The position numbers and the translations under genes were made by a program. The notes beneath the pieces were generated by a model. That model had not been told where the DNA came from. It did no database searches and saw nothing but the letters and a program-made list of their open reading frames with translations. 64,000 nucleotides of DNA from Escherichia coli. Lineage in GTDB: Bacteria; Pseudomonadota; Gammaproteobacteria; Enterobacterales; Enterobacteriaceae. Location of the stretch: the NCBI RefSeq assembly GCF_003334385.1, contig NZ_QOWN01000002.1; one strand, written 5' to 3'. How positions within the stretch are numbered: the stretch's first letter is position 1; every line of letters starts with the position of its first letter. Shown here in pieces: positions 18,889-27,623 of this stretch.

Positions 18889-19518
18889 TTATGCCCACTC
18901 ATTTTTTAACGCTTGATGATGCAGCTGCAGCCATTGCAAAGCGATGACCGACGCTGCGTTGTCGATTTTCCCCTCTTCTACCCACTGGTATGCCTGTTCC
19001 CGGCTTACCACATGAACGCGAATATCTTCGTTTTCATCAGCCAGACCGTGAATACCGCTTGCGGTCGTGGCGTCCACTTCGCCCACCATAATTGACGAAC
19101 GCTCACTGGTGCCCCCCGGGCTTGCCAGGAAACTTAACACCGGTTTGGTCCGTTTGACTATCAGTCCCGCCTCTTCAATCGCTTCGCGACGGGCAACATC
19201 TTCCACACTTTCACCCTCTTCAATCATCCCGGCAACCATCTCCAGTAGCCAAGGGGTTTCGCTGGTGTCGTACGCGGCAATCCGAATCTGCTCAATCAGC
19301 ACAACTTCATCACGCACTGGGTCAAAGGGTAGCAAGACTGCGGCGTGACCGCGCTCAAAAATTTCCCGCCGCACCTCATGACTCATTTGCCCGTTGAATA
19401 GACGATGACGAAATCTATAAAGATCTAATGAAAAAAAGCCGCGATAAAGTGTTTCTCGTGCAATAATTTCTACATCGTTTTTGCCAAATGTAACGGGCAG
19501 GTTGTCTGGCTTAAGCAT
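18889..19518 (-). CDS. nudF: ADP-ribose pyrophosphatase (Nudix)
   Basis: ORF track; 209 aa; Nudix box [22 protein letters not shown]. Confidence 0.93.
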
Positions 19519-19722
19519 TGTTAATGTCCTGGCACTAATAGTGAATTAAATGTGAATTTCAGCGACGTTTGACTGCCGTTTGAGCAGTCATGTGTTAAAT
19601 TGAGGCACATTAACGCCCTATGGCACGTAACGCCAACCTTTTGCGGTAGCGGCTTCTGCTAGAATCCGCAATAATTTTACAGTTTGATCGCGCTAAATAC
19701 TGCTTCACCACAAGGAATGCAA

Positions 19723-21204
19723 ATGAAGAAATTGCTCCCCATTCTTATCGGCCTGAGCCTTTCTGGGTTCAGTTCGTTGAGCCAGGCCGAGAACCTGATG
19801 CAAGTTTATCAGCAAGCACGCCTTAGTAACCCGGAATTGCGTAAGTCTGCCGCCGATCGTGATGCTGCCTTTGAAAAAATTAATGAAGCGCGCAGTCCAT
19901 TACTGCCACAGCTAGGTTTAGGTGCAGATTACACCTATAGCAACGGCTACCGCGACGCGAACGGCATCAACTCTAACGCGACCAGTGCGTCCTTGCAGTT
20001 AACTCAATCCATTTTTGATATGTCGAAATGGCGTGCGTTAACGCTGCAGGAAAAAGCAGCAGGGATTCAGGACGTCACGTATCAGACCGATCAGCAAACC
20101 TTGATCCTCAACACCGCGACCGCTTATTTCAACGTGTTGAATGCTATTGACGTTCTTTCCTATACACAGGCACAAAAAGAAGCGATCTACCGTCAATTAG
20201 ATCAAACCACCCAACGTTTTAACGTGGGCCTGGTAGCGATCACCGACGTGCAGAACGCCCGCGCACAGTACGATACCGTGCTGGCGAACGAAGTGACCGC
20301 ACGTAATAACCTTGATAACGCGGTAGAGCAGCTGCGCCAGATCACCGGTAACTACTATCCGGAACTGGCTGCGCTGAATGTCGAAAACTTTAAAACCGAC
20401 AAACCACAGCCGGTTAACGCGCTGCTGAAAGAAGCCGAAAAACGCAACCTGTCGCTGTTACAGGCACGCTTGAGCCAGGACCTGGCGCGCGAGCAAATTC
20501 GCCAGGCGCAGGATGGTCACTTACCGACTCTGGATTTAACGGCTTCTACCGGGATTTCTGACACCTCTTATAGCGGTTCGAAAACCCGTGGTGCCGCTGG
20601 TACCCAGTATGACGATAGCAATATGGGCCAGAACAAAGTTGGCCTGAGCTTCTCGCTGCCGATTTATCAGGGCGGAATGGTTAACTCGCAGGTGAAACAG
20701 GCACAGTACAACTTTGTCGGTGCCAGCGAGCAACTGGAAAGTGCCCATCGTAGCGTCGTGCAGACCGTGCGTTCCTCCTTCAACAACATTAATGCATCTA
20801 TCAGTAGCATTAACGCCTACAAACAAGCCGTAGTTTCCGCTCAAAGCTCATTAGACGCGATGGAAGCGGGCTACTCGGTCGGTACGCGTACCATTGTTGA
20901 TGTGTTGGATGCGACCACCACGTTGTACAACGCCAAGCAAGAGCTGGCGAATGCGCGTTATAACTACCTGATTAATCAGCTGAATATTAAGTCAGCTCTG
21001 GGTACGTTGAACGAGCAGGATCTGCTGGCACTGAACAATGCGCTGAGCAAACCGGTTTCCACTAATCCGGAAAACGTTGCACCGCAAACGCCGGAACAGA
21101 ATGCTATTGCTGATGGTTATGCGCCTGATAGCCCGGCACCAGTCGTTCAGCAAACATCCGCACGCACTACCACCAGTAACGGTCATAACCCTTTCCGTAA
21201 CTGA
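19723..21204 (+). CDS. tolC: Outer membrane efflux channel TolC; start trimmed to MKKLLPILIG
   Basis: ORF track frame; signal peptide; 493 aa. Confidence 0.97.
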   Translation: MKKLLPILIGLSLSGFSSLSQAENLMQVYQQARLSNPELRKSAADRDAAFEKINEARSPLLPQLGLGADYTYSNGYRDANGINSNATSASLQLTQSIFDMSKWRALTLQEKAAGIQDVTYQTDQQTLILNTATAYFNVLNAIDVLSYTQAQKEAIYRQLDQTTQRFNVGLVAITDVQNARAQYDTVLANEVTARNNLDNAVEQLRQITGNYYPELAALNVENFKTDKPQPVNALLKEAEKRNLSLLQARLSQDLAREQIRQAQDGHLPTLDLTASTGISDTSYSGSKTRGAAGTQYDDSNMGQNKVGLSFSLPIYQGGMVNSQVKQAQYNFVGASEQLESAHRSVVQTVRSSFNNINASISSINAYKQAVVSAQSSLDAMEAGYSVGTRTIVDVLDATTTLYNAKQELANARYNYLINQLNIKSALGTLNEQDLLALNNALSKPVSTNPENVAPQTPEQNAIADGYAPDSPAPVVQQTSARTTTSNGHNPFRN

Positions 21205-21351
21205 TGACGACGACGGGGCTTCGGCCCCGTCTGAACGTAAGGCAACGTAAAGATACGGGTTATCTGCCGCATTCTTCCCCCTTCTCGCTTCAATTTCGAC
21301 CAGCCATCCTCTATTCTGATGGGTATTTACCACTGGTCCCGGAAGACAAAA

Positions 21352-22023
21352 ATGAAACGGACAAAATCCATACGCCACGCATCGTTCCGCAAAAACTGGA
21401 GCGCACGCCATCTGACACCAGTCGCTCTCGCGGTTGCCACTGTTTTTATGCTGGCTGGCTGTGAAAAGAGTGATGAAACAGTGTCTCTCTATCAAAATGC
21501 TGACGACTGTTCAGCTGCAAACCCAGGCAAAAGCGCCGAATGTACCACCGCGTACAACAATGCGCTGAAAGAAGCCGAACGTACTGCGCCGAAATACGCC
21601 ACCCGTGAAGACTGTGTTGCTGAATTTGGTGAAGGTCAGTGCCAGCAGGCACCAGCCCAGGCTGGCATGGCACCAGAAAACCAGGCGCAGGCCCAGCAAT
21701 CCAGCGGGAGTTTCTGGATGCCGCTGATGGCCGGTTACATGATGGGGCGTCTGATGGGCGGCGGCGCGGGATTTGCACAGCAGCCGCTGTTCTCCTCGAA
21801 AAACCCAGCCAGTCCGGCTTACGGTAAATATACCGACGCGACGGGTAAAAACTATGGCGCAGCCCAGCCAGGCCGCACCATGACCGTACCGAAGACGGCA
21901 ATGGCACCAAAACCGGCGACCACCACTACCGTTACCCGTGGCGGTTTTGGTGAATCTGTTGCCAAACAAAGCACTATGCAGCGTAGTGCAACCGGTACCT
22001 CTTCTCGTTCAATGGGTGGCTGA
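21352..22023 (+). CDS. ygiB: DUF1190 protein YgiB; start trimmed to MKRTKSIRH
   Basis: ORF track frame; lipoprotein-like signal (LAGC); 223 aa. Confidence 0.85.
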
Positions 22024-22028
22024 TACCG

Positions 22029-23189
22029 ATGGAAAGAGTCAGTATTACCGAGCGCCCGGACTGGCGTGAGAAAGCCCACGAATACGGTTTCAATTTTCAC
22101 ACCATGTACGGCGAGCCGTACTGGTGTGAAGATGCTTACTACAAGTTGACCCTCGCCCAGGTTGAAAAGCTGGAAGAAGTCACCGCCGAACTGCACCAGA
22201 TGTGCCTGAAAGTGGTGGAAAAAGTGATCGCCAGCGATGAGCTGATGACCAAATTCCGCATTCCAAAACACACCTGGAGTTTTGTGCGCCAGTCATGGCT
22301 GACGCACCAGCCATCGCTTTATTCGCGTCTTGATCTGGCGTGGGATGGCACTGGTGAACCTAAACTTCTGGAAAATAACGCCGATACGCCAACGTCACTA
22401 TACGAGGCGGCGTTCTTTCAGTGGATCTGGCTGGAAGATCAGCTTAACGCCGGTAACTTGCCGGAGGGCAGCGACCAGTTTAACAGTCTGCAAGAAAAAC
22501 TGATCGATCGCTTCGTTGAGCTGCGTGAACAGTATGGCTTCCAGTTGCTGCATCTCACCTGCTGTCGCGACACGGTGGAAGATCGCGGAACCATTCAGTA
22601 TTTGCAGGACTGCGCAACGGAAGCTGAAATTGCTACTGAGTTCCTCTACATCGATGATATCGGGTTAGGTGAAAAAGGTCAGTTCACGGATTTACAGGAT
22701 CAGGTAATTTCCAACCTGTTCAAACTGTATCCGTGGGAATTTATGTTGCGTGAGATGTTCTCAACCAAGCTGGAGGATGCAGGCGTACGCTGGCTGGAAC
22801 CGGCGTGGAAGAGCATTATCTCCAACAAGGCACTTCTACCGCTACTGTGGGAGATGTTCCCGAATCACCCGAACCTGCTGCCCGCTTATTTTGCGGAAGA
22901 TGATCATCCGCAAATGGAAAAATATGTGGTTAAACCGATCTTCTCCCGTGAAGGCGCAAACGTGTCGATCATTGAGAACGGCAAAACCATTGAAGCAGCG
23001 GAAGGTCCGTATGGCGAAGAAGGGATGATTGTTCAGCAATTCCACCCGTTACCGAAATTCGGCGACAGCTATATGCTGATTGGTAGCTGGCTGGTGAACG
23101 ATCAACCCGCCGGAATTGGCATTCGTGAAGACCGTGCATTGATCACCCAGGATATGTCTCGGTTTTATCCACATATTTTTGTTGAATAA
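22029..23189 (+). CDS. ygiC: Glutathionylspermidine-synthase-like ATP-grasp protein YgiC
   Basis: ORF track; 386 aa. Confidence 0.88.
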
Positions 23190-23226
23190 GCCACGATACC
23201 GGATGGCACTCGCCATCCGGTAATTG

Positions 23227-24940: not shown

Positions 24941-24971
24941 CAGAAGTTGTCCAGCGCATGGACAACTTCTG
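24941..24971 (-). terminator. Hairpin CAGAAGTTGTCC...GGACAACTTCTG; U-run follows on minus strand (terminator of the small ORF)
   Basis: 12-bp perfect inverted repeat; plus-strand aaaacaacat upstream gives a U-rich tail in the minus transcript. Confidence 0.5.
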
Positions 24972-27573: not shown

Positions 27574-27623
27574 TCGCATTTGGCCGGGTTCGCCCGGCCA
27601 CATCATTAACGGATTAATGATAA

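Follow-up and report, generated by a model that had tools for sequence, protein, structure and literature searches.

A probable leaky 3'-end stem-loop of the tolC mRNA beside an internal Cpx-type ygiBC promoter in Escherichia coli

The strong stem-loop that follows tolC in Escherichia coli is likely to be a leaky 3'-end element of the tolC mRNA, probably linked to Rho, lying beside an internal Cpx-type promoter that serves ygiB and ygiC. The RNA 3' ends, the read-through, the effect of bicyclomycin, the internal start site and the CpxRA dependence in Citrobacter rodentium on which this reading draws are published data. The leaky 3' end, the read-through and the ygiBC start site were already known from published maps, and a CpxRA-dependent ygiB promoter had been reported earlier in C. 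rodentium, while the structure of the hairpin, its homology to elements of related genera, its covariation and its conservation come from the present analysis. Rather than as a plain operon, tolC-ygiBC is better viewed as a pair of overlapping transcription units, one of them tolC with leaky read-through and the other a Cpx-type ygiBC unit.

The stem-loop after tolC and the RNA ends behind it

The window, a stretch of 64,000 nucleotides, contains the tolC-ygiB-ygiC locus of E. coli K-12, and its positions are converted to those of NC_000913.3 by adding 3,158,392. The features of the upstream unit are the following:

19473, 19608, 19672 and 19681, plus strand: tolC transcription start sites (genome 3,177,865; 3,178,000; 3,178,064; 3,178,073; SMRT-Cappable-seq, PMC6131387)
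19723 to 21204, plus strand: tolC coding sequence, 493 amino acids, NCBIfam TolC equivalog (826 bits against a cut-off of 495)
21212 to 21231, plus strand: stem-loop GACGGGGC-UUCG-GCCCCGUC in the tolC 3' UTR, probable leaky terminator without a U-tract, at the 3' end of the tolC-only mRNA
21233 to 21236, plus strand: RNA 3' ends, 21233 by SMRT-Cappable-seq (genome 3,179,625, PMC6131387) and 21236 by Term-seq (3,179,628, PMC7815308)
21260 to 21319, plus strand: C-rich, G-poor untranslated tract, putatively rut-like on read-through RNA by analogy with PMC6061677, overlapping the ygiB promoter DNA

The tolC reading frame is closed by a TGA (21202-21204) that is directly followed by a second in-frame TGA (21205-21207), and the hairpin starts 7 nt past the stop. 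At the DNA level it consists of a 5' arm GACGGGGC (21212-21219), a loop TTCG (21220-21223) and a 3' arm GCCCCGTC (21224-21231), which form a stem of 8 bp with 7 G-C pairs. By itself the hairpin folds with -16.6 kcal/mol, and its 40-nt context folds with -18.6 kcal/mol (z = -3.9 against shuffles). The 10 nt past the stem, TGAACGTAAG, contain just 2 T, and the tail TGAACGTA, with 2 T in 8 nt and a longest T run of 1, lacks a U-run of 4-5 or more in the first 8 nt or so. This agrees with the initial annotation, which had noted a strong hairpin at about 21212-21231 without a T-run. Because only 2 T occur in the 10 nt that follow, a consensus terminator scan did not call the hairpin, and since both the hairpin and the ygiB promoter are off-consensus, such promoter and terminator scans are uninformative here. 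About ten distinct hairpins of this strength occur in the window, against 1.2 in dinucleotide shuffles, and with so few of them per window a position 7 nt past a stop codon is not due to chance.

The published 3' ends lie 2 and 5 nt behind the stem, which makes the element a stable U-less stem-loop with an adjacent steady-state end; both SMRT-Cappable-seq and Term-seq map steady-state ends rather than release sites. The Term-seq end at 3,179,628 was present in two growth conditions (4220 and 1585 reads), has an intrinsic-terminator score of 1.32, under the threshold of 3, and with a Rho score of 2.16 was flagged as lying inside a Rho termination region (PMC7815308). For the corresponding Rho-region entry, 3,179,617, the downstream/upstream coverage was 107/204 without and 194/161 with bicyclomycin (score 2.30, p = 1.6e-7), i.e., the inhibitor raised coverage downstream of the hairpin 2.3-fold (PMC7815308), although an action of bicyclomycin on the internal promoter could mimic read-through, since the 800-nt downstream window includes transcripts of that promoter. 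The Rho scores of 2.2-2.3 barely exceed the authors' threshold of 2 and are based on a few hundred reads (PMC7815308). The RNA downstream of the hairpin is C-rich and G-poor, with a GC skew of -0.59 over 21260-21319, and 115 nt remain untranslated before ygiB.

For the tolC transcript 3,178,000-3,179,625, 12 reads stop at the mapped end, another 5 do so within 50 nt of it, and the 11 that go further extend by a median of 1029 nt (PMC6131387), so that 11/28 full-length reads from this one tolC start site, or about 40%, go past the hairpin. The operon variants b3035/b3036/b3037 and b3035-b3038 were catalogued in the same SMRT-Cappable-seq study, and tolC-ygiB(-ygiC) variants start at 3,178,000, 3,178,064 and 3,178,073 (PMC6131387). 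Single RNA molecules therefore span the tolC-ygiB junction. The initial annotation had proposed partial read-through instead of a hard terminator, had suggested a read-through ratio from RNA-seq as a check, and had named a lack of junction-spanning transcripts as the result that would speak against it. The published genome-wide data settle these points in its favor, as tolC-only RNAs end at the hairpin and the passing reads enter ygiBC (PMC6131387).

The ygiBC promoter and its CpxR-type box

Behind the hairpin a second transcription unit begins, with the following features:

21237 to 21251, plus strand: CpxR-type direct repeat GTAAG-GCAAC-GTAAA, its centre some 80 nt before the ygiB start site
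21289 to 21317, plus strand: ygiBC promoter, -35 TTCAAT (21289-21294), 17-nt spacer, -10 TATTCT (21312-21317)
21324, plus strand: start site of the ygiB-ygiC transcript (genome 3,179,716, SMRT-Cappable-seq, PMC6131387)
21352 to 22023, plus strand: ygiB, DUF1190 (NCBIfam, 404 bits), predicted lipoprotein of 223 amino acids
22029 to 23189, plus strand: ygiC, peptide-spermidine ligase, homologue of the GspS synthetase domain (NCBIfam)
23197 to 23226, plus strand: terminal stem-loop TACCGGATGGC-ACTC-GCCATCCGGTA, where the ygiBC and tolC-ygiBC transcripts end

For tolC, ygiB and ygiC the NCBIfam and RefSeq annotations concur. The ygiB ATG lies at 21352, 1 base earlier than the initial annotation implied, and the gap between ygiB and ygiC is 5 bp (22024-22028), as stated there. 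The old ygiA (b3036) reading frame was rejected as a gene; it has been dropped from the current annotation, relatives have unrelated hairpins in place of its 5' part, and indels of 10-23 nt occur in the spacer. At the terminal stem-loop, 3' ends were mapped to 23225/23226 (SMRT-Cappable-seq 3,181,617/8, PMC6131387; Term-seq 3,181,617, PMC7815308).

The published ygiBC start site lies 7 nt past the -10 hexamer and leaves a 5' UTR of 28 nt with a Shine-Dalgarno sequence GGAAGA at 21341-21346. From this start, 195 and 175 reads end past ygiC (PMC6131387), which compares with 67 from the tolC start site in the same data. The promoter is too weak for the consensus promoter scan, which did not call it, and its -35 and -10 hexamers are kept in all 74 relatives compared. 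Upstream of this core promoter lies a repeat of the GTAAA-N5-GTAAA type, which is identical in 75/75 sequences except at its sixth base. The distance from box to promoter is 45-47, 56-58 or 67-68 nt, which makes three classes that differ by roughly one turn of the helix. Matches to the CpxR motif number 8 in the window where 3.1 are expected, and a match by itself is thus not significant. Readings of the conserved block as a sigma-E or sigma-54 promoter were dropped by eye because the -35 and the -24/-12 elements misfit.

In C. rodentium, a ygiB-lux reporter carrying a 300-bp fusion requires CpxRA, unlike a tolC reporter, and the region between tolC and ygiB has a putative CpxR site at the same position (Gilliland et al., bioRxiv, 10.1101/2021.12.13.472529, 10.1101/2022.08.05.503015). 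A search of the open literature found no report of CpxR binding or Cpx dependence for the tolC-ygiB site of E. coli; CpxR presumably binds the box in this species as well.

Turnover of the hairpin among relatives

The comparison covered 74 Enterobacteriaceae loci with a tolC-ygiB junction, or 75 sequences including the window. Order and orientation of tolC-ygiB-ygiC are kept in 74/74 loci, and ygiB and ygiC are separated by 5 or 2 nt in 73 of them. The tolC-ygiB spacer measures 139-217 nt save in one locus, where it reaches 626 nt; an Rfam scan of that spacer returned nothing meaningful. Some stable stem-loop lies between tolC and the CpxR-type box in every relative, and in 19 of them tolC is parted from ygiB by a canonical terminator with hairpin and T-run.

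To assess pairing in the hairpin family, a box-anchored count was combined with a covariance-model alignment. The model was trained on the relatives with a hairpin and T5 tract only, excluding Escherichia and Citrobacter, and it matches the window at 21210-21242 (E = 1e-6), at the tolC-ygiB junction only. Going by this match, the E. coli hairpin is homologous to the hairpin-plus-T5 terminators of Kosakonia, Phytobacter and others. In the alignment 99% of cells are paired, 4 of the 9 pairs have changed on both sides, and 0/500 shuffles reach the observed covariation score. Wobble G-T pairs are seen on the plus strand only, and the structure therefore resides in the sense RNA. What differs is the tail, since Escherichia and Citrobacter read GTCTGAAC where relatives of the Kosakonia/Phytobacter type read GTTTTTAC, and the distance from stop to stem, which is 7 nt in the E. 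coli/Citrobacter version and at least 15 nt in the relatives with a T-tract. The 7 nt themselves differ even between Escherichia and Citrobacter, i.e., the upstream flank is not conserved.

In other genera the same position is filled by unrelated terminators or by REP-like palindromes, the latter in Salmonella, Enterobacter, Lelliottia and some Citrobacter, and CCCTCTCC...GGAGAGGG repeats likewise hold it. The REP-like pattern, which recurs at other intergenic sites, gives no match to the hairpin of E. coli. The junction is a tidy case of terminator turnover beside a fixed promoter, with U-less hairpins, canonical terminators and REP-like repeats in turn.

These data also bear on how tightly ygiBC is tied to tolC. 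Coupling by read-through, as suggested in the initial annotation, does occur, but it does not supply the bulk of ygiBC RNA: the reads from 21324 outnumber those from the tolC start site, the promoter and its box are conserved in 74/74 relatives, the ygiB reporter of C. rodentium, in contrast to the tolC reporter, depends on CpxRA, and a canonical terminator stands between the genes in the 19 relatives mentioned.

Proposed mechanism, alternatives and known systems

In the proposed sequence of events, polymerases coming from the tolC promoters would be halted at the hairpin only partly, because the stem lacks a U-tract. Rho, loading on the C-rich and untranslated spacer behind the hairpin, would probably release the stopped transcripts; 3'-to-5' exonucleases would then trim the released RNA back to the stem, leaving a stable tolC-only RNA that ends 2-5 nt past the hairpin. 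This order, with Rho release preceding trimming, is one that we infer. The remaining 40-50% of transcripts would continue into tolC-ygiB-ygiC mRNA. The weak sigma-70 promoter right after the hairpin yields ygiB-ygiC mRNA independently, and because ygiBC has its own promoter with a CpxR-type box, it would be inducible by envelope stress apart from tolC. The two genes, 5 nt apart, are translated from one RNA.

If the hairpin were instead a weak intrinsic terminator, a fraction of transcripts would be released a few nt downstream, Rho would be irrelevant and the mapped 3' ends would be the release sites. The strong GC stem with its cUUCGg loop and the canonical look of the homologous hairpin-TTTTT elements in Kosakonia, Phytobacter and others fit this explanation, as does the leakiness reported for many terminators whose U-tracts are poorer (SMRT-Cappable-seq, PMC6131387). 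Against it stand the two T in the 8 nt past the stem, the silent terminator scan, the published terminator score below threshold and the significant shift of downstream coverage by bicyclomycin (PMC7815308). The position of the ends argues in the same direction, as +2 and +5 are nearer the stem than is usual for intrinsic release. Such release usually falls 7-9 nt past the stem. On balance we consider a purely intrinsic terminator unlikely. To judge from relatives that have a T5 tract, the element may be able to work as an intrinsic terminator, and some Rho-independent release in E. coli is possible.

The initial annotation had also considered attenuation. In a regulated form of it, the hairpin would be toggled by refolding of the RNA or by a factor that binds it, and ygiBC levels would thereby follow a signal. 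Read-through at some 3' terminators depends on conditions, and the tolC-only TTS entry appears in just one of two conditions (PMC6131387); in addition, a ribosome that terminates on the tolC stop codon, 7 nt ahead of the stem, would be expected to cover the 5' arm. Yet no structure competing with the stem and no conserved alternative (antiterminator) pairing or sensor domain were found in the tolC-ygiB spacer, which as a whole folds no better than shuffles (z = -0.34), an Rfam scan of the locus matched no family, and the stop-to-stem nucleotides vary as described. A specific sensor also fits poorly because unrelated hairpins or REP-like repeats replace the element in other genera. Regulated attenuation thus finds no support here, and we regard it as very improbable. 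Slightly less probable still is that the 20-bp perfect palindrome acts as a DNA site for a dimeric regulator of the ygiB promoter, or that it is a dispersed REP-type repeat without a local role. The perfect inverted repeat does lie 5 bp from the CpxR-type box, and REP-like and CCCTCTCC...GGAGAGGG repeats occupy its position elsewhere, but the arms covary instead of holding a fixed half-site sequence, the plus-strand G-T wobbles would turn into A-C mismatches in the opposite strand, and RNA 3' ends map right behind the palindrome. The hairpin 20-mer is moreover single-copy within the window, 3 mismatches allowed, and carries no REP consensus, which sets it apart from REP/BIME elements.

As a speculative extension that we think improbable, if a little less so than attenuation, the hairpin may act together with the box 5 bp further on as a single insulator that stress can switch. 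During envelope stress, CpxR~P on the box (21237-21251) would then activate the ygiBC promoter and also roadblock polymerases coming from tolC, hairpin termination would rise just when ygiBC is self-driven, uncoupling the pair from tolC, and the missing U-tract of Escherichia and Citrobacter together with the 7-nt stop distance would tune the residual coupling.

Returning to the leaky, probably Rho-linked 3' end beside its internal promoter, the arrangement is relevant to tolC deletions and insertions used as genetic tools, because these can alter ygiBC expression, and to the interpretation of phenotypes shared by tolC and ygiBC mutants; its importance beyond annotation is small.

Among known systems, Dar and Sorek (2018; PMC6061677) described a class of stable stem-loops without a U-tract that mark where Rho-dependent transcripts end at steady state, the rut sites following closely behind. 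The tolC hairpin shares with these protective elements the stable GC stem-loop without a U-rich tail or upstream A-tract, the steady-state end a few nt behind the stem, the tract of C over G that comes next and the bicyclomycin-sensitive read-through. It differs in that its Rho effect is modest, at about 2.3-fold, and confounded by a promoter 90 nt downstream, and in that about 40% of tolC transcripts read through. By analogy, it may shield the RNA from PNPase and RNase II, with release taking place downstream.

The intrinsic terminators of Kosakonia, Phytobacter, Kluyvera and Pseudocitrobacter occupy the same slot, past the tolC stop and ahead of the CpxR-type box, and those of Kosakonia and Phytobacter have a homologous stem of like length and energy; the tail and the distance from the stop set the E. 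coli element apart. REP/BIME and other extragenic palindromes are found in the same slot after tolC, whereas the E. coli hairpin is single-copy and lacks their consensus. Palindromes of the REP/BIME type stabilise upstream mRNA and can reduce read-through. With the CpxR-activated ygiB promoter of C. rodentium, finally, E. coli shares a repeat of the GTAAA-N5-GTAAA type in the tolC-ygiB spacer, some 90-100 nt ahead of the ygiB ATG. An independent ygiB start site is present in E. coli, and one half-site of its candidate box reads GTAAG.

The tolC-ygiB junction and its transcript ends

The locus is of E. coli K-12 type (the NC_000913.3 coordinate minus 3,158,392 gives the window coordinate), and the 251 junction bases were matched in 5,426 of 5,426 complete E. 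coli genomes, at an identity of at least 99% in 5,380 of the 5,426. Its features, with gene identities from NCBIfam, are the following.

19723-21204: tolC, confirmed as TolC
21212-21219: hairpin 5' arm, GACGGGGC
21224-21231: hairpin 3' arm, GCCCCGTC
21237-21251: CpxR-type direct repeat GTAAG-GCAAC-GTAAA, starting directly past the mapped tolC 3' end at 21236
17 nt upstream of the -10: ygiBC -35, TTCAAT
21312-21317: ygiBC -10, TATTCT, ending 7 nt before the start site at 21324
21352-22023: ygiB, confirmed as DUF1190
22029-23189: ygiC, similar to the synthetase half of glutathionylspermidine synthetase/amidase

The initial annotation had described a strong hairpin lacking a U-tract behind tolC, and a stem-loop was found exactly at that site (21212-21231), with a TTCG loop, 7 nt from the tandem TGA-TGA stop that closes tolC, and with TGAACGTAAG directly 3' of it, devoid of a T-run. 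Its 5-bp spacing of ygiB and ygiC was equally accurate, and this gap measures 5 or 2 nt in 73 of 74 related loci. The hairpin has a folding energy of -16.6 kcal/mol alone and of -18.6 kcal/mol in a 40-nt context (z = -3.9) and occurs once within the window; about 10 strong hairpins of this kind are present there, compared with 1.2 expected from shuffles. For want of a T-run, a consensus scan did not call it as a terminator, and an Rfam search matched no family to it. Five more strong perfect-stem hairpins without a T-run (2802-2828, 24941-24971, 27581-27600, 49768-49793 and 62733-62764) are candidate members of the same class of U-less 3' ends. The former ygiA (b3036) reading frame (21204-21464) spans the hairpin and the promoter and runs into the start of ygiB. 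It has been dropped from the current RefSeq annotation and is not conserved, since indels of 10-23 nt occur in the spacer and the 5' part is unrelated in other genera; the label 'internal to ygiA' persists for the tolC 3' end in some published tables.

In reviews, tolC-ygiBC is described as an operon. Term-seq mapped an RNA 3' end in two growth conditions to genome position 3,179,628 (21236), 5 nt past the stem (Adams et al., 2021). SMRT-Cappable-seq, which reads whole primary transcripts, recovered a tolC-only RNA from 3,178,000 to 3,179,625 (21233), where 12 reads end and a further 5 end at most 50 nt away, while 11 run on, by a median of 1029 nt; the operon variants tolC-ygiB and tolC-ygiB-ygiC are also tabulated (Yan et al., 2018). 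These variants and the 11 passing reads mean that junction-spanning transcripts exist and that the site is leaky, so the partial read-through initially proposed is borne out by data already in print, at roughly 40-50%. Term-seq also lists an 'orphan' 3' end at 19591 (genome 3,177,983), 132 nt 5' of the tolC ATG and just behind a small hairpin, GACTGC...GCAGTC. The main tolC start at 19608 is downstream of this end, which must therefore belong to RNA begun farther upstream, for example at 19473; early termination or a short leader RNA could account for it.

Exchange of gene-end hairpins among relatives

With YgiC as query, 80 Enterobacteriaceae loci were fetched, 74 of which include the junction, all 74 in the order tolC-ygiB-ygiC. 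Between the tolC stop and the CpxR-type box the sequence is not conserved and a stable stem-loop is always present. REP-like palindromes and the CCCTCTCC pattern recur at other intergenic sites in these loci and are therefore dispersed repeats.

Stem-loop groups behind tolC, assigned by inspection of the related-locus outputs (number of sequences in brackets)
CGGGG(G)C...GCCCC(C)G hairpin without T-run: Escherichia, many Citrobacter, Superficieibacter, Pseudescherichia-like (21)
The same hairpin followed by TTTTT: Kosakonia, Phytobacter, two 'Enterobacter sp.' (8)
Unrelated A-tract/stem/T-tract terminators: Kluyvera, Pseudocitrobacter (11)
REP-like palindromes: Salmonella, several Enterobacter and Lelliottia, some Citrobacter (14)
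CCCTCTCC...GGAGAGGG palindromes: other Enterobacter (10)
Other U-less GC hairpins: Leclercia, Silvania, Trabulsiella, Klebsiella, Raoultella (11)

A covariance model trained on only 11 sequences, none from Escherichia or Citrobacter, matched window 21210-21242 (E = 1e-6), and its matches in the 711 kb searched were confined to this junction. In its alignment, built to fit the structure and with four palindrome matches from the reverse strand among its sequences, 99% of cells are paired and 4 of 9 pairs have changes on both sides; the covariation score was reached by 0 of 500 shuffles, and slid controls pair at 38-65%. Counts anchored on the box gave C-G in 18 sequences, U-A in 2 and U-G in 3 at the first position, A-U in 21 and G-C in 2 at the second, and G-C in 9, A-U in 8 and G-U in 4 at the third. 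G-U pairs occur on the + strand only, so the structure works at the level of the tolC-sense RNA and not as a DNA operator. E. coli has GTCTGAAC where the Kosakonia version, with TTTTT directly behind the hairpin, has GTTTTTAC, and the sequence comparison as a whole argues that the E. coli hairpin is related to such terminators and under structural selection.

Hairpins with a T-run of at least 4 always start at least 15 nt past the tolC stop, and U-less ones mostly 5-10 nt past it (E. coli, 7 nt), within reach of the terminating ribosome. This pattern may be a phylogenetic coincidence, as T-runs are present in only about three independent lineages. In Enterobacter hormaechei subsp. hoffmannii (L047:2707-3332) the tolC-ygiB spacer measures 626 nt, with an insert of about 470 nt flanked by two CCCTCTCC...GGAGAGGG palindromes; this spacer gave no meaningful Rfam match and no convincing ORF.

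The internal ygiBC promoter and its CpxR-type box

The initial annotation missed an internal start site at 3,179,716 (21324), whose RNAs cover ygiB-ygiC only, with 3' ends at 3,181,617/8, past the hairpin at 23197-23222; its 195 and 175 reads in two conditions exceed the 67 from the tolC start site (Yan et al., 2018). The -10, the -35 and the CpxR-type repeat explain this separate start. The repeat fits the CpxR consensus with one mismatch, and the window holds 8 motif matches compared with 3.1 expected, which is not significant for the motif alone, so the case for the box rests on conservation, phasing and published reporter data. The last ~100 nt of the spacer are strongly conserved in the Enterobacteriaceae loci compared, the box being invariant bar its sixth base and the -35, -10 and ribosome-binding region also being conserved. 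Box centre and -10 are separated by 45-47, 56-58 or 67-68 nt, three classes only that differ by about one helical turn, a stepping that would be predicted for an activator site dependent on the face of the helix. In Citrobacter rodentium, Raivio's group found that a 300-bp ygiB-lux fusion needs CpxRA and a tolC-lux fusion does not; the authors inferred a separate ygiB promoter and pointed to a putative CpxR site in the tolC-ygiB interval. Another group later remade the reporter strains in a Mu-free cpxRA deletion mutant and reported independent replication of the original results.

Several observations concern the surroundings. The terminal hairpin behind ygiC, between convergent ygiC and ygiD, has no good T-run (tail ATTGTTAGCC) and is passed by 15-33% of ygiBC reads, RNA that would be antisense to ygiD. 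IS37 (GCGGCGCGGGATTTGCA), a published sigma-54 ChIP-seq site (PMC4591121), lies in sense orientation at 21761-21777 inside ygiB, 258 bp 5' of ygiC. The ygiB frame of Trabulsiella odontotermitis strain 01 (L079:3355-3729) ends 271 nt 5' of ygiC, either through an assembly error or because the gene is a pseudogene. An 'MG1655' genome from Boston (NZ_CP025268.1) lacks the whole of tolC, with nudF joined directly to the spacer at window 21218, within the hairpin, and looks like an engineered deletion that removed the 5' arm of the hairpin and retained the ygiB promoter.

Probable Rho-dependent release and trimming

Attenuation, the other option initially raised, is not supported: a regulated attenuator is unlikely, as no alternative fold was found (spacer z = -0.34), the flanks of the hairpin lack conservation and relatives carry other elements in its place. 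Termination by the hairpin without Rho may contribute at the site, and is improbable as the sole mechanism. The 3' end at 21236 has an intrinsic-terminator score of 1.32 (threshold, 3) and a Rho score of 2.16 (Adams et al., 2021). The same study lists a Rho termination region at the tolC end, where the downstream/upstream coverage changed from 107/204 to 194/161 on addition of bicyclomycin (score 2.30, p = 1.6e-7). The Rho score barely passes its threshold, and the internal promoter may have raised it. The 32 nt from the tolC stop codon to the mapped 3' end are too short for Rho loading and action, which makes release at a point beyond 21236 most likely, and the RNA would then be trimmed back to the hairpin, as described for 'primary' Rho regions in general (Adams et al., 2021).

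Taken together, the tolC hairpin is a genuine and functional element of an ordinary kind. Published data sets already contain the operon, the internal start site, the read-through and the 3' end with its link to Rho, and a Cpx-dependent promoter has been described for a close relative; the minor additions made here are the homology of the U-less hairpin to TTTTT-bearing terminators, the turnover at the gene-end position and the helical phasing of the CpxR-type box. The hairpin is best read as a member of the class of Rho-dependent ends described by Dar and Sorek (PMC6061677), in which steady-state transcripts end just past stable, U-less stem-loops that stop 3'-to-5' exonucleases, with a rut site just downstream. 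The E. coli spacer resembles this class in its GC skew of -0.59 over the 60 nt past the box and in being untranslated for 115 nt.
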